DNA of 64,000 nucleotides, taken from NCBI GenBank assembly GCA_951406725.2, contig OX597815.1, positions 107,632,001 through 107,696,000 on the forward strand, in the 5' to 3' direction. This document shows, one piece after another, positions 23,954 through 64,000 of this stretch. The stretch comes from Octopus vulgaris. Its lineage: Eukaryota. Numbering within the stretch: position 1 is the stretch's first letter; the number at the start of each line of letters is the position of its first letter. The translations under genes and the position numbers were made by a program. The notes below the pieces were generated by a model. That model had not been told where the DNA came from, searched no databases, and saw only the letters and a list, made by a program, of their open reading frames with translations.

Positions 23954-24203
23954 AGCGGTACTCAGTAGATATTTCTTTATTACGATTATAAAAATCGGTA
24001 CACAGAATTACAAATACAGGACATACATACAAAAACATTTAAGAGAATCGTTTAAAAATTGTTTAAATTCGTTATAAAAATATTAACCTTTGCTTAACTA
24101 GTATAGCAAACAACAGTAGGTAACCTTGTCGTCTCACTGGCGTTTTTACACCCCGGCAATTTGTGAGGCCCTGCAGCTTCCACTTCCTCTCTCTCCTCCA
24201 TGA

Positions 24204-27200
24204 TCAAGCTGGGTTTCTCACACCCACCTTTCTTTCTACTTCCTTCCATCTTTTCTCGTACACACCCCGCGGCAGGGTCCTCTTCTCCAGCCCCATTTTG
24301 CTCTTCAGATGATATCTGAAGTAAGTGAGCAAGCCGGGTCCGGAGATGAAGGACCCTATCGCGGCTCCTTCCATTCTCGTTCTCCACATGCATTCCTTTA
24401 CCACTGCCACCGTGCAGTGGAAACATGCCTCACCTTCCTTCGAGAGTCCAGTTGGCGGTATCATCTTAATCATAGACTCAGCCGACAGCTGTACTCGTCC
24501 CAGATGGGACAACACGTGTTCTGCGTAACTTATCAAGTCGGACAACTTCCGACAGTGAACAAAGGCGTGCTGGACGGTTTCATCGTCCAACCCGCACCTT
24601 GGACACGTCGGTGGCACTTGAACTCCGTGCCGCGATAACTTCTCGCGAACAGGTAAAGCATTCCTGTAGCACTGCCAGGCCAGGGATCTTTGGAAATTAT
24701 CCAAATACCCCGACCTGAAAGTTTTTTTAAACAGGTTGGCGAGCTGGTCTTCATCAAACCCCAGAGCCCCTCCTAGGACGTCGTCATTTTTTACCTCCAC
24801 CAGCCCTCTATAAAATACCGAGGTGGTATTTCCGCAGCCGGCCTTACCCGTCTTGTGGATCAGCGTGAGTGCCTGTCGGCACTCTTTTTGCCATGGAGTC
24901 AGTTTCCATCTTTTGATGTAACCGGGTTTAAAATTAACTAAGGAGGCCGGTCTCGGGAAAAATCCCTCTGCCAGCGGACTCCACACCTTATCACCCTCCA
25001 GGTGGTGCCAGAGGTGCCTTAGCCTCAACGCATGTCTGCGCATCATCAACCAAGGCATCCCTAACCCGCCCTTTAACGGTTCTTGGCAGCAAACGGATCG
25101 TCTCACAAGTGGCTTTCCTCCTTTCCACAAAAAGCGGAAAAGGATTCGTTCCAACTTGTTAAGCCATGAATCGGGGCAAGGGACAACGGTCAGGCGGTAG
25201 GTGATTACAGATGCAATAAACATCTGCACCACCTCCGCCCTTCCTTTCAGGGACAGAGACCTTCCGGACCAGGTCCGTACTATGGCCTCCACCCTGCTCG
25301 TCACCTCGCTCCAGTTCTTCTCCGTTTGGGAGTCTGGTCCAAACCAAACTCCCAGCAACTTAACAGGGCCATCCGTCCAGTGTCCCACGACACTGGACGA
25401 TATCGGCTTGCTCCTCCAGGTGCCGAGGCGCAAGCCAACCGATTTGTCCTTGTTAACCTTTGCTCCTGCCACCGCCTCGTATCCTCTGATAACCTCCTCC
25501 ACACAAGGTAGTTGGGCCTCTTTGGACACGATGAGGGTGACGTCATCCGCGTAAGCAGTCACCGTCCTCCCACCTCCGATTTCATCCGAGTTACTCCCCA
25601 GCCTCTCCAACTTTCGCAGCAGTGGCTCAAGAGCCAATACGTACAAAAGTGGTGACAAGGGGCACCCCTGACGCACTGAACACTTGATCGAAAACGGTTC
25701 CGTTAGGTAACCGTTTATCTGGACGGTGGACTTGATGCCGCTATACATAGCGGAGATCCACCCGCGAAATTCAGGGCCCAGCCCAGTCGCTTCGAGGACC
25801 GTCGCCAGGTACCCATGGTCTACCCTATCGAAGGCTTTACTTTGGTCTAAATGGACCATTACCCCACCTTTGCCGGCTAATTTACCCACCCTATCTAAGG
25901 TGTAGCGTATAAGGTGAAGATTGTCCTGGATCGACCTGCCTGGAATTGCACATGTCTGTGCTCTCCCTACAAGTTTCTCCACGACAACCGTCAACCTTTT
26001 TGCTAACACCTTGGCCAGAATCTTTAACTCTACATTAAGTAGAGTTATGGGCCTGTAGTTACTAATATTATCCCCCTTGCTCGGGTCTTTCTGGATTAGC
26101 GTCACCACTCCCCGGCTTACAGAACTGGGGATTCTCCCATTCTGCTGCCAGTTCGTGTAGACGCCTGCCAGTATTCCCCCGAACAAGTCCGGCATACTTT
26201 GGTAAAACTCATAGGGCAGACCATCCAACCCCGGCGACTTCTCCCCGGCGCATCCGGCCAGTATCTCCTTTATCTCCGCGGGAGTGATCGCTCCCTCACA
26301 GCACTCCACTTCACGCCCCGCGAGCCGCGGTCCGCCGGCCAGGAAGTCCTTTAAGGCCCTCCCCCGATCCAGCGAACCACCACCCCCCGAACACGCGAGC
26401 GAAATGCTGGTGAAGAAACTTTTGCATCTCCTCCTGTCCATAGATCTTTTGTCCCTGTTCGTCAGTCAAAGATTTAATTGAGGCTCTATTGCCTCTCTTA
26501 CTCTCCACACGACGGGCCCATCCGGCCACGTTAATACCTTCTCGTTTCCCAGCACGCAGCTTAGCTCTGACTCTGCAACCTTCGTACTTGGAGTTAAGGT
26601 GACGGTACAATACCGTCCTTGCCGCCAACACTCCGGATGCAGAGCCAGCTTCCATTGCCTCGTCTAGATTCTTGACTAAATCGCCCTCTAGACTAGCCCT
26701 ATCTATCCTTAGCTGATTGCTAAATCTGACGGACTCTAAACGAATGGCTCTTTTGAGGGCGTGCCACCATCTATTGTTAATGATGGTGCCACACAATGCC
26801 CTCTGAACTAACACCTTAATCCGGGTACGGAAGTCTTCACAATTCAAAATAGCCTTGTTCAGCTTCCAGTACCCGGGTCCCTGTCTATGACACTTGTCTA
26901 ATTGCACCTCACACGTCACAAATTTGTGATCCGAGTAAGGTACAATATGAAATTGTGGACAACTAAACGTATCCTTATCTCTTTTCTTAATAAATATCCT
27001 ATCTAGATACGATCTGTGTGAGCCGTCGTTGTTACTCCACGTCCACTGTGGAACGCTCGGCTCATCCAGTCGGTAACGGTCCACTAGATCAAAGCTCTCT
27101 AGTAGACCCTTGAGGCTAGGGTTCCCCTTCCTATTGGTTGAGCCAACACTGTCGATGTGCGCTTCAAGGACAGTGTTAAAGTCCCCTACTAGGATTACTG

Positions 27201-27594
27201 TTTTCGACGTCGCTAAAAAGGGCTCCAGGTTCCGGAAAAAACCCGTCTGTCTACCCTCGTTCGGGGCGTAGACAGCTACCAACCTGAAGGACTGTTTACT
27301 TACGTGAGTCACATCCAGGACAACCAGCCTGCCTTCTGGGTCCAGAAAGACAGTACTTACCTGCAAGTCCAAGCTCTTCCTGATGAAGACTGCCACGCCT
27401 CTGCCTCTTCCTCGGCTAGGAGAAATAAATTTCTCGAAACCATTTAGAAGAGGCGAGAACGCTTGGGTCTCGCTCATCTTGGACTCGGTTGCAATAGCAA
27501 TATCTACACTGTGTGTCGTGAGGTCGTTCAGGAAACAAATTTGTTTCCGTTTCGACCCCATTCCACGTACATTTATACAGCCCAGCTTAGCCAT
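24204..27594 (-). CDS. Tx1 ORF2: APE endonuclease, reverse transcriptase, C-terminal CCHC zinc finger; one frameshift at 26383-26388
   Basis: APE motifs INVRG, VYAPN, GDFN, YLDRIF, SDHK. RT motifs KSPGLDG, NYRPITLLN, DQSKAFDRV, VRQGCPLSP, YADD. CPRC..ETVQHAFVHC. Removing one G from a G6 run joins ORFs 26311-27594 and 24204-26441 into about 1129 aa. Confidence 0.9.
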
Positions 27595-27622
27595 TGTGGG
27601 TGAGAGAAGGAAATGTATATAC

Positions 27623-29047
27623 TCACGGTTGCGAGAGGGAGCATGACAGTTTCAATCTGCCTGCTTCCCTTTCTTCCGTTGCTGCAGGGTTCTTGACCGG
27701 CGTTGCCACTGGGCTCTGGGTGGGTGTGGTTGCCGGGGTTATTGCCAGTTTACCCTCCATTACCTCCTTGGTTACATCTCTAATAAGACGGTTCCTCAGG
27801 TGTTCCTGAAGAACCTCCTCCTTCCACTCGTTCTCCCCTACCTTCGCGAAACGAGCGGTCGCCTTCCCATCTGAGGTTCTACTATACAGTGGAAATCTCG
27901 CGAGTTTGCAGCATTTGTAAACTTTTTCATTTTTTTCATCAAAGGCTATAATTCTTTCGTTTTTCGATATGCACTTTTTGATGTCTTGTTTTATGGGGAG
28001 GGGTTTGGCAAACTGTTTTCCAATGAAAACAGTGCCATGGGGGTAGGGTTGGGGGATTTGTTTAATGTGTGTGTCTGCTGTGTTTGTTGTTTTTTTCCTT
28101 GTTTGGGGAGGGGAGTCCTGGGTGTTCTCTTTTTTTCTTTTGTGTGTGACTTGTGTGTAGTCCATTGGTTCTTTTGAATCCGTTTTCGTTTCCGTACTTG
28201 TCTTCTTCATTTGGTTGTTCTTGCTTGTTTCCTCCCCTTCAGTGACAGGTACACTTTGAGGAGGCGTTTCTTCTGTTCTTTTTTTCTTAATGCAGTTGGA
28301 CCGGACGTGACCCTTCTCTCCACACTTGAAGCATCTGGGTCTACGTCCCTCCACCGACACTCTCATGGACGTGCCGTCCTCATTAAAAATTCTGTCAGGC
28401 AGGCTCTCCAAGATCTTGTTCTCTGCCTGTACGAGGAGTTCCAAGGTCTGACCCTTCCAGCGTACCACTTCCTTCCTTCTCATTTGCAGAATTGAAATTT
28501 CCCGCTCCATGTTGTGTAGTACCGCCGCTGCCACCCACATGATGTCGTACCCTCTGGGTATGTCATCTACCACTAACTTTGCAGTTCGTTTCCCCATATA
28601 CGAGGGTAACAACATGATGTCGTCGCTTTTTAAGGTTAACGACGACACCTCCTTCGCCACTTCTGCCGTGTCGAAGTGCACCTCTACCGTAGCACTACGT
28701 GCGCCTCTCGCGATGTGACGAATTCTGTCCCACACCGGGGACAGGCACTTCTCAACAATTTCGTTTTTCGCGTCCATAATCTTTTTTTCCTTAAAGCTAT
28801 ACACTTTATAAGTTACAATCCTTTCCTTGATTTCTTGCACTTTCGCTTGCGGCGGTACCAGCCTTATCTCTCCTCCTTCCACCTTTACAAGATTCCTGTA
28901 TTCATACAGCTGTTCGATCTTGAATTCGACCTCTATCATAGCGCCGCCCACCGCGGCCGAGAATGACTGTTTGGTTACTGGGTTTTCCATGGTTTCACCT
29001 TTTCCCATCACGGGAAAATCGTCCTTCGACGTTAAGTCGAACTCCAT
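27623..29047 (-). CDS. Tx1 ORF1, gag-like nucleic-acid-binding protein with CCHC zinc knuckle
   Basis: Uninterrupted ORF (first ATG at 29047); CFKCGEKGHVRSNC knuckle; SFSAAV motif; stops just upstream of the ORF2 ATG at 27594. Confidence 0.88.
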   Translation of the reverse strand: MEFDLTSKDDFPVMGKGETMENPVTKQSFSAAVGGAMIEVEFKIEQLYEYRNLVKVEGGEIRLVPPQAKVQEIKERIVTYKVYSFKEKKIMDAKNEIVEKCLSPVWDRIRHIARGARSATVEVHFDTAEVAKEVSSLTLKSDDIMLLPSYMGKRTAKLVVDDIPRGYDIMWVAAAVLHNMEREISILQMRRKEVVRWKGQTLELLVQAENKILESLPDRIFNEDGTSMRVSVEGRRPRCFKCGEKGHVRSNCIKKKRTEETPPQSVPVTEGEETSKNNQMKKTSTETKTDSKEPMDYTQVTHKRKKENTQDSPPQTRKKTTNTADTHIKQIPQPYPHGTVFIGKQFAKPLPIKQDIKKCISKNERIIAFDEKNEKVYKCCKLARFPLYSRTSDGKATARFAKVGENEWKEEVLQEHLRNRLIRDVTKEVMEGKLAITPATTPTQSPVATPVKNPAATEEREAGRLKLSCSLSQP

Positions 29048-29891
29048 CACCTCAAAGGTAGCAAATTTCAAATAATACAAAATTTTCTGCCCCGTAGGGC
29101 GAAAATCACCGTTTCACAACGGGCACTGTTCAAAGCAGTTGGTACAAACAATAAATTCACAACTTCGACTCTCTTAAATGGGAGCAGCAATTTTCTCACA
29201 ACGCAAACAGAAAAATAACGCAATTAACAGAAGCGGTACTCAGTAGAATACTTAATGCTAGCTAATTAGCAAATAATCTAATGTAAAAGCCGTGCACACC
29301 TCAATCTGGACTATTCCATTTCTGCATTTAAATTTTATTTTTTATTTATTCCCATTCATGTGAAACCACTGATTCAAGTTCAAGTCATTGATGCAATTTT
29401 ATACCAATTGCACTATTTTTACTTTTGTCATGTTACGATAATATTATACTTTAGCTTGATTTTAATTATTACTTACTACATATAATTCAATTGTTATTAT
29501 TATTTTTATTGTTAAAGTGAAAGTATCTGACATAAAATAGAGAAATGTTTTTGTTTCACTTTTAACATGTAATACTGAAATAGTGGAGAAGATATGATAT
29601 TGCTATGGGCTCGCTCTAGGCAAGAAGTTGAACATTTTTTTGCCCATGAAACTACATGGACCCTAAGTAAGGCATATATAAAATTTGAATGAAATTGGTT
29701 GTGTAGTTCTCAAGTTTTAGGGAAACACAGACAGACAGACACACATTCTCAGTTTTATATATATAAAGATATATATGGTTGTTATATTTTTTCCGATAAC
29801 ATAATAAGTTAGATATGATGATGGTTGTTATATTTTTTGATAACATAATAAGTTAGATAGATGATGTCTATATTACAAAATTACAATAACC

Positions 29892-30116
29892 AGGGTGGCA
29901 AGCTGGCAGAATCATTAGCATGCTGGGTGAAATACATAGCGGTATTTCATCTACCGGTATGTATGTCATTCTCAATTCAAATTCTGCCTTTCATCCTTTT
30001 GGGGTCTATTAAATTAGTACTAGTTATGCACTGGGGTCGATGTAATCAACTTAATCCCTTTGTCTATCCTTGTTTGTCCCCTCTATGTTTATCCCCCTGT
30101 GGGCAATAAAGAAATA
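29892..30116 (+). mobile_element. Meta-like SINE with Tx1-like tail
   Basis: Same family as 2797-3018; ends CCCCCTGTGGGCAATAAAGAAATA. Confidence 0.8.
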
Positions 30117-33924: not shown

Positions 33925-35628
33925 GTTAGTTAGTTAGTTAGTTAGTTAATTTGGCTCAAAAGCAAATAGCAAGGCCATGTAGGGGGACATGGAGTTAAGT
34001 ACAGGGTGGTGTTCATGTAAAGAGTTCAGGCCACTTGAGGTCCAGGGAGGCTTTGAACAAAGCGGTCGTCGGCATCTTCACCATCTCGTCTGGCAGCTTG
34101 TTCCACGGATCCGCAACCCGGACGGAGAAAGCTCCTCTCCTTCGATTGAGATGAAATCGTCGCAGGTAGAGCTTTTCGGAATGACCCCGCAGCCGACGCT
34201 CCGGAGCAGGAGTGAAGAACAGTTCTTTCGAGAGGTTACACTTCCCGCTTATGATGTGGGCGAGAATGAGATCACCACGGCGGCGGCGTTTTCCAAGAGA
34301 ACAAAGGTCGAGCGTCCTCAGCCTTTCTTCGTAGGACAAATTTTTGAGACCATGAACCATGCGGGTAGCCAGCCTCTGGACTCTTTCGAGGTGCTGTATG
34401 TCTTTGAGGAGATAAGGAGAAGAGGCTTGAATCCCATACTCCAATATGGGTCTCACCAGCGTGACATAGAGTGGCAGGAATATGGCTGCTGTGAGCATTC
34501 CGAATGACCGTCGAATCAAAAACAGAATTCCGCGCGCTTTGTTGGCAGCATGGACGCACTGGGCCAAAGGCGAAAAGGAGGAATCCACCAAGATACCCAG
34601 GTCCTTTACCTGATCGGTCCTCTCCAGCAGCAGACGACCCGGCTCGAAATCAAGTTGAGTTGCAGGAGTAGAGCCGACAGGCAGATGACAGCACTTTGAC
34701 ACGTTCAGACACAGGTCCCAATCGTTAGACCACTTCCAAATTTGGTGGAGGCATCGACGAAGATCCTCTATACTACCGCGAGGAGCGACCAGTTTGATAT
34801 CGTCGGCAAATAGAAGGGTGTGTTGCGTGAGGTCGTCGGGCAAGTCATTTATGAAGACTAAGAACAACAAGGGCCCAAGCACTGAACCTTGAGGCACGCC
34901 ACTGCTCGCACTGGAGACGTCGGACCGCGAACCATTAACTTGAACTTGGAAGGAGCGATCTGAGAGGAAGGCACCAACCCATCATACAATATCCGGATGG
35001 AAACTATATGCTTGAAGCTTGACAAGTAGTAGGCGGTGGTTTACCGAGTCAAAAGCTTTGGCAAAGTCCAATAAAACGATGTCAACAGCATCACTATCAT
35101 CGAGGATGCGCGTCACTAATTCTTCCATTACTAGTAAGTTGGTCAAGCATGATCTCTTCGGCACGAAGCCGTGTTGGGAATCAGTGATCGAGGCTGTGTT
35201 TAGGAGGTGGAGCATCATACTTTTCTTAAGGATGGTTTCGAACATCTTGCTGATTATTGATGTAAGGGAAACCGGTCGGTAGTTAAGCGGGTCTTCGCGG
35301 CTCCTTTCTTGAAAATTGGGCAGATTATCGCTGTTCTCCAGTCTGCAGGTATAACACCCATCGCCAATGACATATTGAATAGTCGTGTTAAGGGCTCGCA
35401 GATGACCGGAGCCAACGCTTTGATAACCCGTGGGTGTATGCCGTCAGGGCCGTGACCCTTGTTGACATCGAGGCCTTGAATAACACGCTTGACTTGGTCC
35501 CGCTTGATGATCAATCGAAGCATTGGAGGTACCGATCTATCAAATGGAGGGGGTTCACGACCATCATCTTGTTTGAAAATAGTTGAAAAAGCCTCGGCAA
35601 ATAATTGACTCTGTTGATAAGGGTCCTC
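33925..35628 (-). mobile_element. 5'-truncated CR1-clade LINE (RT region), slightly decayed
   Basis: GPDGIHP, NYRPVSLTS (1-nt frameshift near 35303), QHGF..SCLTNL, DFAKAFDSV, PQGSVLGPLLF, LFADD, RLRGH..WNKLP. Premature TGA at 34982. (CTAA)n 3' tail at 33925-33948. Confidence 0.9.
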
Positions 35629-54972: not shown

Positions 54973-55010
54973 CTGTTACTCTGAGTTTCTCGTTGCCGTT
55001 CATCAGACAG
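54973..55010 (-). ncRNA. Minimal type I hammerhead ribozyme (Penelope-type)
   Basis: Minus strand CTGT-CTGATGA-ACG(GCAA)CGA-GAAAC-TCAGA-GTA-ACAG; intact core, GNRA loop on a short stem II. Confidence 0.75.
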
Positions 55011-55026
55011 TTTTCGTGTTTACTCC

Positions 55027-55132
<106 letters not shown>

Positions 55133-55189
55133 TATATATGTGTATATGTATGTTTATATATATATATGCATATATATATTTATCATCAT

Positions 55190-55740
55190 CATCATCATCG
55201 TCGTTTGATGTCTGCTTTTCATGCTGGCATAGGTTGGACGGTTTGACTGAGGGCTGGCATGCTAGAAGGCTGCACCAGGCTTCAATCTGATCTGGCAAAG
55301 TTTCTACAGCCGGATGCCCTTCCTAATGCCAACCACTCTGAGAGTGTAGCGGGTGCTTTTTATGTGCCACCTGTACGAGGGCCAGTCAGGTAGTACTGGC
55401 ATTGACCATGCTTAAATGGTGCTTTTTACATGCCACCAGCATGGGAGCCAGTCAGGTAGCACTGGCATTAACAACGCTCAAATGGTGCTTTTTACGTGCC
55501 ACTGGCATGAGTGCCAATTAGGTAGTACTGTCATCAGTCATGACAATGACTTCAATTGACTGAACAGGTCTTCGCAAATGCAGTTTATTTCCCAATGATT
55601 GAAGGGTACTCTTAAATGAGCCGGTTATGCTGCACTGGCATAGGCCACGGTTATGGTCTCATTTGGCTTGCCAGGTCTTCTCAAGTACACCATATCTCCA
55701 AAAGTCTTGGTCAATTGTCATCACCTCCATGAGACTCAAC
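55190..55740 (-). mobile_element. 5'-truncated RTE LINE 3' end
   Basis: Reverse complement of the 45148-45760 type sequence. Confidence 0.85.
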
Positions 55741-55881
55741 ATATATAAATATGTATAATATACATATGTATACAAACACACACACATGCATGCACACACA
55801 CACACGTGCACACACACACACGCACACATATATATGTATATGGTTGGAATATGGATACTAAATGATGATGACACATATACA

Positions 55882-55920
<39 letters not shown>

Positions 55921-56011
55921 CCATGTACGTATATATATATATGTATATATATATATATACACACATACATGCATATATATATGTATATATACATATGTAT
56001 GTATACATATG

Positions 56012-56050
<39 letters not shown>

Positions 56051-56061
56051 GTATGTGTATA

Positions 56062-56113
<52 letters not shown>

Positions 56114-56153
56114 AATAAATGGTGGGGTTGTGTCAACCGCACGCTGAGAAATG

Positions 56154-57256
56154 ATAGGCAGAATGCTAAATTGAAAGTAAATTTTAATAAAAATGTGTGT
56201 ATGAAAAATTAAAAAAGAAAAAATAAATCAAATGGCTTTCATTGTAAGGCAAATTTTCGAGATTTGGAAGGGAAAAATTTTCTTTTTTAATTGAGGAAAG
56301 GGAAAAAAGAAATTTACAATGTTTTTTTCAAAAAAATAATAATACATATATACAAACATTAATAAATAAGTATACCAATACATTGTTGTGTCTTATGCTT
56401 TCAGAGTTCAATATTAGTCCTTGGAAAAACTTCTTTGGAGGATTAGGATGCATGTGTTTAAGTGTAGTGTTTAGTTTGAAAGAGTTGGGTGATTGTGTGT
56501 CAAAACAAGAAATGGGGTAGGAGTTATCCAGTTCCTGTGAGTAAGGGGAGATAATTCTGTGGATTTTGATGCTCTTTAATTGGAATGCTGGATTCTTTGT
56601 TAAACAGGATGCTTATATCAATTTTTTTTCAGATAGGATGCTAGAAAAAGGAGTATGGTCATCTCTTGCACTAGAGATAAAAATCCCAAATTTCACATAT
56701 TCCCTTTCTACCAATGTAAAGACAGAATCTCTACACAAGAAAGAATCAACAAGGAGAATCTTTTTAATGAAAAATTCCAAACGTGTCTTAATATGCAAAC
56801 TCCATGTTGACCATGTTCTTTTTTCTAGCATCCTATCTGACAAAAAATTGATATAAGCATCCTGTTTGACAAAAAATCCAGCAATCCAATAAAAGAGCAT
56901 GAAATCCACAGAATTGTCTCCCCCATTTCCTGTTTTGACACACAATCATCCAACTCTTTCAAACTTAAACACTACACTTAAACACATGCATCCTAATCCT
57001 CCAAAGCACTCTAATATTGAACTCTAAAAGCATAAGACACTTCAATGTATTGGTATACTTATTTATTAATTTTTGTATATATGTATTATTATTTTTTTAA
57101 AAAAGCAGTGTAAATTTCTTTTAAAAAGTTTTTCCCCCTTCCAAATCTTGAAAATTTGCCTTGCAATGAAAGCTGGTTTGATTTCTTTTTTCTTTTTTAA
57201 TTTTTCATACACCCATTTTTATTAAAATTTACTTTCAATTTAGCATTCTGCCTTAT
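56154..57256. repeat. Long inverted repeat (arms about 56154-56661 and 56808-57256, spacer about 146 bp)
   Basis: GGCAGAATGCTAAATTGAAAGTAAATTTTAATAAAAAT / ATTTTTATTAAAATTTACTTTCAATTTAGCATTCTGCC, with similarity along the arms and small indels. Confidence 0.9.
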
Positions 57257-57271
57257 TATTTTTTCCTCTCC

Positions 57272-57303
<32 letters not shown>

Positions 57304-57873
57304 TAATGTTAAATAAAAAATACTTGATATTTTCAGACTATAGAGGAGTGGGGGAGAAATTGTAATTTATGTATTGTTAAGAAAAGCCAAATTTTGAAGC
57401 ACTTGCAGCAACAAGTTATCAACCTTAGTTCAAAATTGGGAATACTTGAAAAATATAGACATCGACAAAAATTCCTGCTATGAACTTGGTTGGTGTCACC
57501 TTGAAAGTACTACTAAGCTGTTAGTGCACATTGGCATCTACATAACAAAGAACATGAATACCAACTCTGCTACTCCTAGATGGTTCACGATTGTAATGAA
57601 GGCTTCTTTCTTTGCTAGTGTCTCTACCCCATCCTCTATGCCTTAATCACTATATCCCTGACTCTACGTAGAAGTTCTACAGACGAGGTCTTCCCAGCAT
57701 AAAGTGATGGGAGATGTGTATCACCATTGGTGGTGGCTATATAGAGAAGGACTAATAATAATACCAAGTTTCATTTATCCCAGACTTTGGGAAGTGGACC
57801 GGGGGAAATCTTTAATGAACACCACTTGTATATTGTAGTATATATCTTTGGCTCTACATAGTTGCATATATTG

Positions 57874-57936
<63 letters not shown>

Positions 57937-58165
57937 TATATATATATATACACACACGTATATATATACATATATACGAGCTACAGTAGCATCCATGCTT
58001 AAGGGACATTTAAGTGACTAATATACTTCACAATGTCATGCAGCTACTGTTTATACCTCGCTCAGAGATTTATTATTGCTTGTTTACACTTTTTTGAGAT
58101 CGGTGACATTTCGTCACTGGAAAAAGGATATATATGTTTGCATTGAAAACCACTTCACATCGACA

Positions 58166-59886
58166 ACCGATGCTCGTCACTCTTCTGTGTTTTTTGGAAA
58201 GTGAGGCTGACTCAATGCAAAGCCACCATGTTAGGCGGAATGAAGAAAGCAAATGAAATGAAGACTTATGCAGAGGCTGCAGAAACTTGGGAAACCAAGA
58301 ATACATGCAGACTGAAGCAGGAACAAATGGAATGGGTTGTAAAGAAATTGAAAAAGTACAGCAGCATGGTGGAAGTTGGAGAAACACAAGTAAGACTAGT
58401 CATGCCTGAAGAAGAGATGAAGAAAATTGAGAAGAAAACTAATTTTTCGAACTTTTTCGAATGAAAATAGAAGAGTGGAGAGAACTCCAGAGGAGGAAAT
58501 AGAAAAACTAATTACGAGCAGCATTGAAGAGAAAATAATCTTCCTCAATAGAGGAAAGGAATACGGGACAGTGGCAGCCATATTTGAAAGGGAAGAAGAT
58601 GTAGTGACAAATTATAAACAGGTGATAGAAGGGAAGAAATGGTCACTATTGCCTAGCACTCCAGGGAAGACATTGATAAAAATTAGAGTTCGAAGAGTAC
58701 CTCCAACGATAGAACCTGAGTGGGTAACAGTGGCCGTTTTTGGCTTGAAGCTGTGAAAAGGAAGTCCAAAATTGGAGATTCAGCTGGTAAACAGAACCAA
58801 ATGTTGGAATTTCTGGGATTACAGCATTGAAATAATCAGAGCTGTAACCCCAGAATATTACAAAGAAGTGCCCAAAACAATAGAGATGCCGACAGGGGAG
58901 AGGCTGGATATAATACTTATGGGAAGACTACCCAGGTGTTACAGGTGTGGACTAAGAGGACACAAAATAAAAAATTGTAAATCAGTTGTGGAGATAGCAA
59001 GAGAAATACAAGAAGAAATAATGAAAGAACAAAGGAAAAGAGGACTGGCAGAAAAAGAAAAACTGGCAGAAAAAGAAAGACTAGAAGAGACAAAAAGCAG
59101 AAAGCATAAAAGAAAGAAGTCACCAACAACAGTAGAAATAAAAAGGTGCAAAAGTATGGAAGAAGAAATGCAACAAAAAATAGAAAATGTAGAAGAACCA
59201 ATAACAGAGATATCAGAAGGGGAGGTGGAAGTACAAAGCGATGAGGAAATTGAGCAAAAGAGCCAGGAGGCGTATGACAAAGGTATACAGAAGAAAGGTG
59301 AGGAATTGCAGTCGCAAGAATGCGAAAAAATACAGACAATCGAATTACAGTGGAGAGGAGAACTAGAAGAGCAAGGAAACAGAAGACGAAGGAAACATGG
59401 AGAAAAACATAACGAGATGGGATGAAAAAAGGTTAATATAATAAATTGTGGAAAAATTACAACTGGAAAAAAAGAATGTGAACATTGTAAATTATGTTAA
59501 ACAAAAAGAAAATAATGGAAAAAGAACTGATGAATGGACAAGTAATTAAAAGTTGTAAAAAAAAGAGTTTAATTTTCTGTTGTAAAAGGACACATATGAA
59601 CGGTTAAATTAAAGGAAAATATGAAAGGATAGGTCACAGTTTCACATTTTAGTGAAACTAGAGGTAGTTTTAAAGTTAATTGTAAAGTCTAATCATAAAG
59701 TTTATTGTAAAGGTATTCACGGTTCATCTCTCAGCGGGGGCGAAGTGGCCATCTCATTTGAATCATATTTATGTTCATTAATCATTTCATTTATCATTTT
59801 TCATCCGTCTTTATGTCCCCGCATATCCGTTGTATGTCCCTTCTATATATCAAGCCTTGTGCTTATAATAAAGAACTAAAGAGATA
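58166..59886 (+). mobile_element. ORF1-only Tx1-like element, unit A (frameshifted gag-like ORF1)
   Basis: ORFs 58201-58464, 58427-58756 and 58772-59425 rebuild MKTYAEAA..FRTFS..PEWV..MGRLPRCYRCGLRGHKIKNC. No EN/RT coding. Ends TAATAAAGAACTAAAGAGATA. Confidence 0.75.
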
Positions 59887-61553
59887 ACCGGTGCTCATCA
59901 CTTTCTGTTGTTTTTTTTTAAAGTGAGACTGAGTTTGTTGCGGGACCGCATTGTTGGGCTGAATGGAAAAGACTGAAATGAAGAGCTATGCGGAGACTGC
60001 TGGAATGCAGGAAACTGAGAACTCACGTATGCTGAAACAGGAGAATATGGAGTGGGACGTGAAGAAGCTGAGAAAGTATAGCCGCATGGTACAGAAAGAA
60101 GAAACCAATATCAAACTAATTATGCCAGAAGACGAAAAAAGAAAATTTATGAACAAAACAATATTATTCAGAACCTTCTCTAACGAAAACAGAAGAATGG
60201 GAAAAGCACCACAAGAAGAAATTGAAGAATTACTACTGGAAAGTATAAGTGAAGAAATACAAGAGGAAGGGAATATGGGACAATAATGGTTACATTTGCA
60301 ACAGAAGAAGATCCAAGATCGAATAAGAGACAAGTGATAGAAGGAGAAAAATGGTTACTAATACCAAACACTCCAGGAAAAAGACTCATCAGAATCAGGG
60401 TAGGAAAAATCCCACCAATGATAGAACCAGAATGGGTGATAGTAGCGATTTTTGGTGATAATTTACTGAAAGGAAATACAAAGTTAAGAGTTCAGATTGT
60501 GAGCAGGACTGAAAACTTGAATTTCTGGGGATATGGCATAGAAGTGGTCTGCACCGTAACCCCAGAATATTACGAAGAGTTACCCGAAACAATGGAACTA
60601 CAAACAGGAAAGAAACTAGAAGTAATATTGCAAGGAAGACTCCAAAAATATTATGAATGTAGCAATAGAGGACACATGAGAAGGAATTGCATTAATACAA
60701 TTATGAAAATGGTGGCAGTGTATATACTGGAAGAAGTAGTAAGAAAAATGGAAAATAATGAAAAGGCAGCAGAGGCAAAAAAGAACCAAGGGAACAGAAG
60801 AAGAAATACAATCCATGACAAAAAATACAGAAGAACCATCAATAGAAGCAACAGAGAAGGAGTTGGAATTGCAGAGTGATGCAGAGAAAAAGCAAGAAAA
60901 CCTAGAATCGTGGAAACCAAATGATAAAAATGCACAGAGGAAAAACACAGAATTGCAGTCTGAGGAATGCATAGATACGCAAATGCAGGAAAGCATGGAC
61001 GTACAAGTGAATGAATTCACAGACTTAAGGAGGGAAATACAAGAACAACGGGAAAATGGAAGGAAAAGGAAACAATGCAAAAACAAAAATGTGAAGGAAA
61101 AATATAGTAAGACAGGATACTAAATGGTAAGTATTTAAATTGTGAAAAGACTGTAACTGAAAAAAAGTATTATAGTTTGAACTTTACAGACTTTAAGAAA
61201 AAAGACGAAAATAATGTAAATTTGAACTGTTAATGAACAAGTTTCTTTAAGTTTTGGTAAACTATGATAAACAGTTTTCTTTTGTTGTAAAAAAAAGAAA
61301 TTAAGAAAGAACATTATAACCATTTATTGTAGAAGTTATAATGATAAGGCAAAGAACAAAGGAAGAAGTCGCAGTTTCAACTCAGAGTGAAACTAAACGT
61401 CATCGAAAGGTTTAAGTGTAAAAAGGTATTCATCGTCTCATTTGCATTATTTATATATCATTTCACATATCATCCTTCATGTCTTTTATGTTCCCGCATG
61501 TCTTTGTATGTCCCCCTCTATATTTAGGCCTTGTGCCTGTAATAAAGAGATAA
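59887..61553 (+). mobile_element. ORF1-only Tx1-like element, unit B (frameshifted gag-like ORF1)
   Basis: ORFs 59963-60286, 60286-60879 and 60758-61123 are collinear with unit A (MKSYAETA..FRTFS..PEWV..GRLQKYYECSNRGHMRRNC). Ends GGCCTTGTGCCTGTAATAAAGAGATA. Confidence 0.75.
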
Positions 61554-61565
61554 ACCAGTGATTGT

Positions 61566-61610
61566 CACATGCTGATGAAAGGTCAATACCCAGAAACTCA
61601 GGTCCGTGTG
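61566..61610 (+). ncRNA. Minimal type I hammerhead ribozyme
   Basis: CACATG-CTGATGA-AAGG(TCAATA)CCCA-GAAAC-TCAG-GTC-CGTGTG: 6-bp stem I, intact core, GUC cleavage triplet, weak stem II. Confidence 0.65.
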
Positions 61611-61776
61611 TATCATGTCAAGCTGGAGATGGGAAGGATGGCTTCCCTTTGCAAATACTGATAGGGCACAGAAAGTGTGTCAATAGCCAGCTGGTGGAGG
61701 TGTCCTCCTGGGGCTACAAGCTACAGTAGCATCCACCCTTAAGGGTTAGCCACATTTAAGTGGCAAATATACTTCA

Positions 61777-61815
<39 letters not shown>

Positions 61816-61865
61816 GATGGATAGATGGATAGATAGATGGCTAGCAAGATATAGATATATATATA

Positions 61866-62708
61866 CTAGCTGACATACCCACTAATTCCCAGGAAAGTGG
61901 GGCTTATCTCTTGGTTCTGTTCTCATAATTGTTTTGCTAATCCAATAACAACAATACAAAGTATGTAACCCTTAAAACGGTTCTTGTGCATTTACTGAGA
62001 ATATTGAACTGTCTTACTCAGGATCTTATTTTTAGGAATTCCAATAAGTTATGAATACCCAAATTGTGAAGCCAGTTATGTAATAATATGAAATTAGTTA
62101 CCCAATAGTAAGAATTCAAATAAAGTAGCCCCGCAAAAAGCATTAATGCATTTCCAGAGTGTATAGAACTTAGGAGGAAATACTAATAAGGTATGTATAC
62201 TAAAATTATGAAGGATGTTACATAATAACAGGCTAATCAAATATGAGATAATAACAATTCAAAGTAAATAACTCTGAAAAGGGCTTTTGTGCATTCCCAG
62301 AGAATACTACCCTCAGTGGCGCTAGTGTTGGTATATTCGTGAATAAGTCACTAACAGAAATAAGTGGATCTATTGTTTAGGAAAATACTATATACTTGTC
62401 TAAGGGTTGTACTGGATAAATTGCAAAAATAACTCAAACAGTTCAAATACTAAGAAATAAGCATGCTCAATTTGATTTATACCAAATGATATTGGAAAAT
62501 GAATGGGTTATTTCCCTTGACTGTTAAAATGAAATATATATAAGGATACCATCCAGGGGCCCTATTATGAGTATGTCATAAGGTTCCCAGACATGATTTC
62601 TACTTATGTGTCAACTTTCATCAAAATCGATAAAACGATGTAGGAAGAGTTAGCTAACAACTCCACAAACACACCTACAGACAGAATTTCTCACATATGT
62701 AGTATTTA
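61866..62708 (-). mobile_element. Non-autonomous Helitron with degenerate internal ~150-bp repeats
   Basis: Minus-strand 3' end ..GTCAGCTAG|T at 61866; 5' region with CAAAATCG..ACAGACAG; three related segments near 61945, 62103 and 62248. Confidence 0.55.
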
Positions 62709-62840
62709 TACTATATATATATATTTTAATATTTTGCTTAGGCATAGTGTGACTAACAACCTGGTGTAGAACTCAATATATGTATGGACAGAACACAATG
62801 TTAGATGAGTGTAGAGTGGTAACAGAAAACAAGGAGATGA

Positions 62841-62884
<44 letters not shown>

Positions 62885-63749
62885 ATGTATGCATGTGTGT
62901 GTGTGTGTGTATGTGTACATTACTAAAATATTGAGACATCATCTTTGTGTACTGTGCTAGCAGTAATAGACCCATCGGTGAAGTTATATGTCTTCCTGTG
63001 GAGAAGGGAATGGAAAGAAAACAGAAAACAAAAGCAGTATGATTATTTAAGGCAGCGCTCCAGCATGGTCGCAGTCAAATGACTGAAACAAGTAAAAGAA
63101 TAAGAGAACAAAAGAATTTACTGCCATATTTATATGCCGCACTTCATTGTTTGCTTGGTATAAATCTGCGGAAAGAGATAGTACTTTGCAACTACTTTTC
63201 AAAAATATGATGAAGAACAAGCACTTCTTTTGCTTACTTGCATATCTCTACATTTGTTGGCATCAAATAATTTTACATGAAATAATGGAAAGAGTAAGAA
63301 ATTCTAAGACGCAATGGTGTGAAGTGCCAGCTGCATATATATATGTGTATAAATACAAGAAGCAATTATAGTGCACACTACCACACAAGACAACGCAGAA
63401 CTACGTAGGAAAATATAAGACAACACATCTTTACTCTAGAGAATACCTATAAAAATAGATGATTAAAAACAGAATCAACATTCATAAGACAGCACTGTTA
63501 AAATAAACAACCAAGTAATGCACAGTAATCACAAACGAAAAAAAACACCTGAATGATCACACACACACACACGCACGCATGCACATACACACAAACATGC
63601 ATGCATGTGGTAAAAAGCTTGCTTCCCAACCACATGGTTCTGGATCCAGTCCCACTGTGTGGCACCTTGGGCAGGTGTCTTCTACTATAGTCTCAGTCTG
63701 ACCAAACTCTTGTGAGTGGATTTGGTAGATGGAAACTGAAAGAAACCGG

Positions 63750-63791
<42 letters not shown>

Positions 63792-64000
63792 ATATATATA
63801 TATGAGCAGGAGTGGGTATGTAGTAAGTAGCTTGCTTACCAGCCACATGGTTATGGGTTCAGTCCCACTGCATGGCACCTTGGGCTACTATAGTCTACTA
63901 TAGTCTTGGGCCAACCAACGCCTTGTGAATGGATTTGATAGATGGAAACTGAAATAAGCCCATCATATATATGTGTGTGTGTGTGTGTGTGTATATATAT

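Follow-up and report, generated by a model that had tools for sequence, protein, structure and literature searches.

Long interspersed elements (LINEs) that have kept only their first open reading frame (ORF1) are represented by HAL1, HeT-A and Ag-Sponge, which go back to the L1, Jockey and CR1 clades (PMC5786205, PMC5753468). Insertion into other transposons has been described for Tx1 of Xenopus (in Tx1D) and for the crocodilian Tx1-Mar, Tx1-8_Crp, Tx1-4_AMi, Tx1-9_AMi and SINEU-3, and another Tx1-clade element, Keno, resides in U2 small nuclear RNA (snRNA) genes (PMC4494074). In Dictyostelium, the ORF1-only derivative TRE5-A.2 is mobilised in trans, and its ORF1 has been proposed to bind TFIIIB (PMC3159450). 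Retrozymes lacking long terminal repeats (non-LTR retrozymes) have been argued to be non-autonomous Penelope derivatives (bioRxiv 10.64898/2026.07.22.740005). Here we analyse a 64,000-nucleotide stretch of the 2.8-Gb genome of Octopus vulgaris (G000:C2:107632001-107696000, hereafter the window), in which three target repeats of ~15 nt flank and separate two ORF1-only retroelements, units 1 and 2, inside a ~360-nt repeat with a predicted hammerhead ribozyme. The identity of the units as Tx1-derived ORF1-only elements at this position of the hammerhead repeat is secure.

The two units are collinear and can be aligned end to end, with 68.7% identity across the initial ~760 nt, and both have tails with AATAAA and without poly(A). 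Their ORF1 breaks, mapped against a natural intact copy, are distinct, as a sequence-only reading of the locus had noted: unit 1, with a zinc knuckle at ~58934-58984, shifts frame near 58445-58452 and is interrupted by an in-frame stop at 58754-58756, and unit 2 has frameshifts near 60259 and 60780-60835 and a decayed knuckle. No trace of ORF2 was detected in 55001-64000 (tblastn, best E 2.1). The same reading had proposed a non-autonomous Tx1-type family, and this was borne out by the genome matches, which are dispersed, keep one ORF1-to-tail layout and number 59 for each unit from the best 40 candidates scored. Many ORF1 relatives (9317 candidates, best 150 scored) have open frames of 440-500 codons, and full-length relatives run from ORF1 to the tail in ~1.6-2.1 kb without ORF2. 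Dispersed copies bear the marks of retrotransposition, namely a fixed 3' end, 5' truncation and target-site duplications. ORF1 is homologous to that of the genome's Tx1-type LINEs and matches no L1 ORF1 family in Pfam; the elements are therefore not HAL1 proper. As a separate observation, differences with A in the unit and G in the relative are about twice as frequent as the reverse when both units are compared with their closest relatives (47/24, 40/26, 46/24).

ORF1 is under purifying selection. In the comparison that the sequence-only reading had suggested, the ratio of nonsynonymous to synonymous substitution rates (dN/dS) has a median of 0.17 over 81 pairs of open copies (dS 0.08-1) and is below 1 in every pair, although the picking of pairs from open frames biases these values downward. 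Between the two units dN/dS is 0.20 (0.09-0.30) at a dS of ~1.5, and this distance, together with the selection on ORF1, means that they did not arise by local duplication. Each is closer to copies on other contigs (~0.9 over the start of ORF1) than to its neighbour (0.70), and the two belong to dispersed, old and distinct subfamilies. In an unrooted tree of 37 open ORF1 sequences, which has long end branches, 28 sequences without a visible ORF2, the window lineage included, form one branch (100/98); five of the 28 are labelled unknown (short locus or unmatched tail), and a second ORF1-only group is placed nearer the intact LINEs. Nested within a hammerhead-targeting group of the ORF1 tree is a young family with another 3' tail and other targets (L144, L121 and L249 versus L123, L320 and L329), which suggests that a tail swap changed its helper and its target. 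Named relatives of the ORF1 protein come from O. bimaculoides, O. sinensis, Argonauta and O. vulgaris (four of ten looked up carry names, and ORF1 alone was compared); a homologue search gave three proteins, all named O. vulgaris, and a protein with this name is identical to the ORF1 of a relative. One contig from another organism (run X17) spans an element tail and the host junction. The structure model of ORF1, with a predicted local distance difference test score of 72.5, has alpha/beta domains ahead of the knuckle, PDB sequence matches are confined to the knuckle, and an Atlas match to ZCCHC3-type RNA-binding domains (0.89) is a lead only.

All 22 near-full-length copies, the window's two included, lie at the hammerhead site, 18 directly before a hammerhead and four before a resident element; with the six intermediate copies, all likewise at the site, the counts become 23 and five. 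In contrast, none of the 23 short truncated copies is found there (Fisher p 5e-15; 1/24 if one train member is counted as short), and many of them are flanked by their own duplications at unrelated sites. The sample consists of the best-scoring matches, 57 tail rows from which six were dropped (one internal tail resembling a short interspersed element (SINE), three that had no tail, a duplicate and a diverged on-target member of a train of stacked elements); endings at resident elements were judged by eye, and a few short copies share another repeat. On target are thus 28 of the 51 counted copies with a 3' end, above the flank criterion of >20% in PMC4494074. The exact tail-plus-host pattern gave 15 matches versus none in the control, among them seven full-length elements between both host arms and one train extending past the fetched stretch.

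Over 18 loci, the identity of the elements does not correlate with that of their hosts (rho 0.06). Element pairs 0.89-0.91 alike occupy hosts with an identity of 0.62-0.69, and elements with an identity of 0.61-0.68 are found in hosts 0.87-0.91 alike; relatives of unit 1 at 0.89-0.91 are found in three host types, and one host type holds several unrelated families. The absence of correlation, together with the close relatives in different hosts, therefore indicates independent and recurrent insertion. Because close relatives use the same position in very different hosts, the target is not one 15-mer, and the motif at 58166, 59887 and 61554, whose three copies match pairwise in 13/15, 11/15 and 11/15 letters, represents the target-site repeat within a larger host repeat and is not fixed in sequence across the family. 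Young copies (L128, L193, L311, L319) have perfect duplications of 15-20 nt, and in empty host copies, for which the sequence-only reading had proposed a search, the left and right arms are joined through a single copy of the 15-mer. That reading was right about a target within the hammerhead repeat and about recurrent insertion just 5' of the hammerhead, but a fixed 15-bp target sequence found no support. Neither random flanks, nor an ORF2 loss peculiar to this locus, nor a local duplication was found. The features of the locus are listed in Table 1.

Table 1. Features of the octopus locus in window coordinates.
Feature	Position	Strand	Basis or remark
Host repeat, left arm	57975..58165	+	preceded by (TA)n run; empty copies join arm directly to target repeat
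9-nt motif resembling U1/U2 snRNA upstream motif	58097..58105	+	start predicted near 58156-58159
Target repeat copy 1, 5' of unit 1	58166..58180	+	sequence alignment; empty host copies
Unit 1, ORF1-only element	58181..59886	+	ORF1 ~58228-59425, 1 frameshift and 1 stop
Target repeat copy 2, between units	59887..59901	+	same letters as 5' repeat of unit-2 relative L032
Unit 2, ORF1-only element of a different subfamily	59902..61553	+	ORF1 ~59939-61123, 2 frameshifts, decayed knuckle
Target repeat copy 3, opening bases of host right arm	61554..61568	+	alignment to host copies
Host repeat, right arm	61554..61780	+	terminates at (TA)n run; best matches 91-95%
Minimal type I hammerhead	61566..61610	+	predicted cut after 61604; stem II weakened in window copy

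The right arm of the host repeat is abundant in the genome (2901 candidates, best 40 scored, top matches as in Table 1). The host unit commonly terminates in (TA)n and in many cases is accompanied by a partial copy in inverted orientation, and its 3' end (61715-61780) recurs at the start of the left arm (57975-58034; 82% over 66 nt), so that it fits a non-LTR retrozyme (PMC7229834), a repeat unit of 150-450 nt with a type I hammerhead in tandem or permuted copies. The ribozyme is predicted at the family level, where the core bases and three stems with covariation that characterize type I hammerheads are present. Across 36 hammerheads behind element tails, stem I retains 4.64 of 5 pairs versus 3.35 with swapped partners and a maximum of 4.0 in 2000 shuffles, a comparison that does not amount to a probability since the hammerheads are related; pairing is kept through several different complementary sequences. 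Stem III is palindromic in most of the 36, with palindromes that differ between host families. Stem II of the window hammerhead is among the weakest of the set, and the ribozyme of this copy has probably decayed. The single sequence folds no better than shuffles (z 0.65), and Rfam at gathering score returned no match in the window, hammerhead included. The sequence-only reading had assigned the host to the Penelope type. It is indeed hammerhead-containing and retrozyme-like. Its affiliation with a given Penelope element is putative, with no host match found beside the reverse transcriptase (RT) in 40 Penelope-RT loci (a few families; 150 of 7502 candidates scored). Hammerheads in the pseudo-LTRs (pLTRs) of those loci have a minimal form similar to that of the host. 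A tie between the host and the Penelope RT near L128 was ruled out, since the flanks of that Penelope family match no host.

Across divergent hosts, the insertion site also lies at a similar distance behind a motif of snRNA promoters. U1 and U2 genes have a common 9-nt motif 59-62 nt before +1 (six promoter types, 24 loci). In 10/10 full-length copies the top-scoring match is to this motif, 82-91 nt ahead of the element, versus 3/23 off-target sites; the ten, whose hosts are related, represent ~4 independent families and leave out two copies preceded by another element. In the window, the motif at 58097 predicts a start near 58157, where the duplication of L193 begins, so that the window's repeat opens about 9 nt past the predicted start. 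At L348 (G000:C3:20.82 Mb), the tail of an element directly adjoins base +1 of a U2 gene; it is nearly identical to the tail of L181, which is inserted at a hammerhead. At several loci the 5' repeat deviates from the 3' repeat identically across copies, and L009 retains the last letters of one host's repeat though inserted in another host; these differences suggest a leader copied from RNA. TATA-like letters precede the 5' junction by 26-30 nt in several young families and in hosts without a hammerhead, and by 37-41 nt in the window's family (both by eye, no background). A general TATA-box rule was kept as a lead only, the U1/U2 motif fitting hammerhead hosts better. Relatives ~26-30 nt behind TATA-like letters, judged in the same way, also occur in repeats without a hammerhead (L138, L267, L318, L134, L194), one of them embedded in a Gypsy-like element. 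Window-family copies are present within the U1 gene cluster at G000:C18:48.97-49.02 Mb (L058, L160, L335), none at +1 and one, oppositely oriented, ~700 nt upstream of a U1 gene.

Intact elements with both ORF1 and ORF2 are common (7534 candidates, best 150 scored). Their ORF2 has endonuclease, RT and zf-RVT domains, and the nearest Atlas cluster is named Transposon TX1 (0.97); the Tx1 placement is based on these domains and this name. Intact elements lie before hammerheads at L181, L182, L183, L184, L186, L190, L191 and L193, the last in the window's host type and with a perfect 20-nt duplication beginning 9 nt upstream of the window's repeat. The tails of ORF1-only and intact elements have in common a short hairpin and AATAAA, and in one lineage the sequence itself, and ORF1-only families are stacked as trains ahead of intact elements. 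The copying enzyme probably comes from intact Tx1-type LINEs, which use the same site. The window also contains a full-length Tx1-type LINE (23954-29247, minus strand; 5278 nt, flanked by 16-nt repeats, with a frameshift that splits ORF2) that is nearly identical to many intact copies. The ends of the repeat that hosts this LINE resemble those of a non-autonomous Helitron. The same Helitron-like repeat is occupied by trains, the longest with seven or more units, of ORF1-only elements of several families before an intact LINE or host (L121/L143, L126/L146, L125/L147, L132/L142, L131/L148). An abundant SINE (L134, many loci, window near 30000) has a tail very like that of the Tx1-type elements, which suggests that they mobilise it.

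The explanation we favour, and consider probable if by no means certain, is that the ORF1-only elements borrow a Tx1-type RT, land a few bases past the predicted snRNA-type start of the host and use its promoter. The insertion position is likely fixed by this borrowing of a promoter rather than by the reading of a fixed DNA sequence. Element RNA initiated in the host would carry a short host leader, and a copy of this leader would pair with the cut target, finishing full-length insertions only there. At the window locus, unit 2 would have arrived first and unit 1 would then have entered at the 5' repeat of unit 2, taking the promoter-proximal place; newcomers repeatedly taking the first place behind the promoter would give rise to trains. 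The ribozyme is best read as mostly a bystander, placed downstream by the host's own layout; it may at most trim read-through RNA, a role that the sequence-only reading had raised. We propose more tentatively that the elements retain ORF1 because the element itself, by way of ORF1 or of the RNA leader taken from the host, guides the borrowed enzyme to promoter complexes of the snRNA type. If true, families would compete for the first place behind the promoter and could switch host repeats without a change of endonuclease.

Several points weigh against this explanation, besides the relatedness of the hosts and the bias in dN/dS given above. The start site is a prediction from a motif derived from six promoters, and a window-family element stands at +1 in 0/24 U1/U2 loci. 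A few letters are common to the junctions at U2 and at some hosts, which leaves room for a loose reading of sequence. Leader inheritance was seen by eye at a few loci, one case being a change at a CpG and one pair having possibly hitchhiked. No intact LINE carrying the exact tail of the window's families was found, and the window's own intact LINE family occupies a site without a hammerhead. Finally, seven of the 15 pattern junctions, which were picked regardless of length, are 5'-truncated and without the host left arm, pointing to carriage by the host or to later deletion. Some carriage of elements by the host repeat does occur besides independent insertion.

In a rival account based on such carriage, a few single insertions would have been followed by joint amplification of element and host by the host's (Penelope-type) machinery. 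One truncated junction has an inverted host piece directly upstream, and in some pairs the elements and the hosts both resemble each other (L031/L032, 0.92/0.87; L060/L017, 0.92/0.90). However, element and host identity show no overall correlation, and a single host type can hold several families at the same site that are unrelated to one another, among them intact LINEs; hitchhiking explains some copies and not the site, and as a general account it is very unlikely. Classical Tx1 targeting, in which the borrowed endonuclease reads a short degenerate sequence common to the hosts and the promoter link is incidental, agrees with the view that target choice in the clade is due mainly to the endonuclease (PMC4494074), and the first two or three letters of off-target duplications often agree with those of the on-target repeat. 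We nevertheless find it unlikely, as a motif so short occurs everywhere and leaves unexplained both the contrast between long and short copies and the close relatives in hosts 62-69% alike.

It is also quite unlikely that the ribozyme itself directs insertion, with cleaved host RNA, or pairing of hammerhead halves between read-through RNA and nascent host RNA, tethering the particle. The hammerhead core is the best-conserved part across hosts, and the mostly palindromic stem III is like that of dimer-acting hammerheads (PMC7229834), but these palindromes vary among host families and relatives insert at the U2 start and in repeats without a hammerhead at the junction. The adjacency and collinearity of the units would suit a single LINE that had shed ORF2 here and was long ago duplicated in tandem. 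This account has next to no credibility: it is refuted by the dispersed relatives of both units, their closer kin on other contigs and the dS and dN/dS between them.

Elsewhere in the window, a fragment of a CR1/L2-type RT tail was noted at 34013-34981 (minus strand), and a fragment at 56700-56800 corresponds to the final part of a Penelope GIY-YIG domain.

A 2026 repeat annotation of O. vulgaris reports 13 recently active L1-Tx1 families (PMC13282606), and in a word search of its main text the words hammerhead, target, ORF1 and non-autonomous were absent. No Tx1 or ORF1-only element targeting a hammerhead repeat was found in the literature, with Repbase Reports and most subscription journals outside the search. 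ORF1-only LINEs and transposon-targeting Tx1 elements are both known, precedents that limit the surprise; their combination and the hammerhead target are apparently undescribed, though a database description may exist. Target choice and switching by target-specific LINEs are usually ascribed to the endonuclease. In the octopus, passengers without an endonuclease hold a strict position across very different host repeats, and the presence of young intact passenger, helper and host copies in one genome makes the roles of enzyme, ORF1, RNA leader and promoter separable. These elements also provide a Tx1-derived example of ORF1-only LINEs, and their position suggests that the promoter behind animal hammerhead repeats is of the snRNA type.

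HeT-A forms head-to-tail arrays, and the octopus units are also arranged head to tail. Keno inserts inside the U2 sequence, at position +37, whereas the octopus element at L348, likewise a Tx1 element in an snRNA gene, abuts +1. Like HAL1, HeT-A and Ag-Sponge, the octopus elements keep ORF1 alone and LINE 5' and 3' ends and are long-lived; unlike them, they are site-preferring and target another mobile repeat, and no Tx1-derived case is named in the available portions of PMC5786205 and PMC5753468. With its ~360-nt unit, low GC content, high copy number, type I hammerhead and partial tandem and inverted copies, the host resembles non-LTR retrozymes and Penelope pLTRs (PMC7229834; bioRxiv 10.64898/2026.07.22.740005), but at the loci seen it consists mostly of one monomer and a part rather than long arrays, and its hammerhead is minimal. 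TRE5-A.2 also inserts position-specifically relative to a promoter complex, yet ~50 bp upstream of transfer RNA genes (RNA polymerase III) and with its own promoter (PMC3159450), whereas the octopus insertions lie just downstream of a predicted snRNA-type start. With the transposon-targeting Tx1 elements they share a non-autonomous passenger, tandem copies around one duplication and transcription proposed from the flank (PMC4494074). Those elements enter piggyBac, Mariner, Harbinger and LTR targets that belong to one sequence family, whereas in the octopus the target is a hammerhead repeat, entered at one position across divergent hosts by passengers that code for protein.
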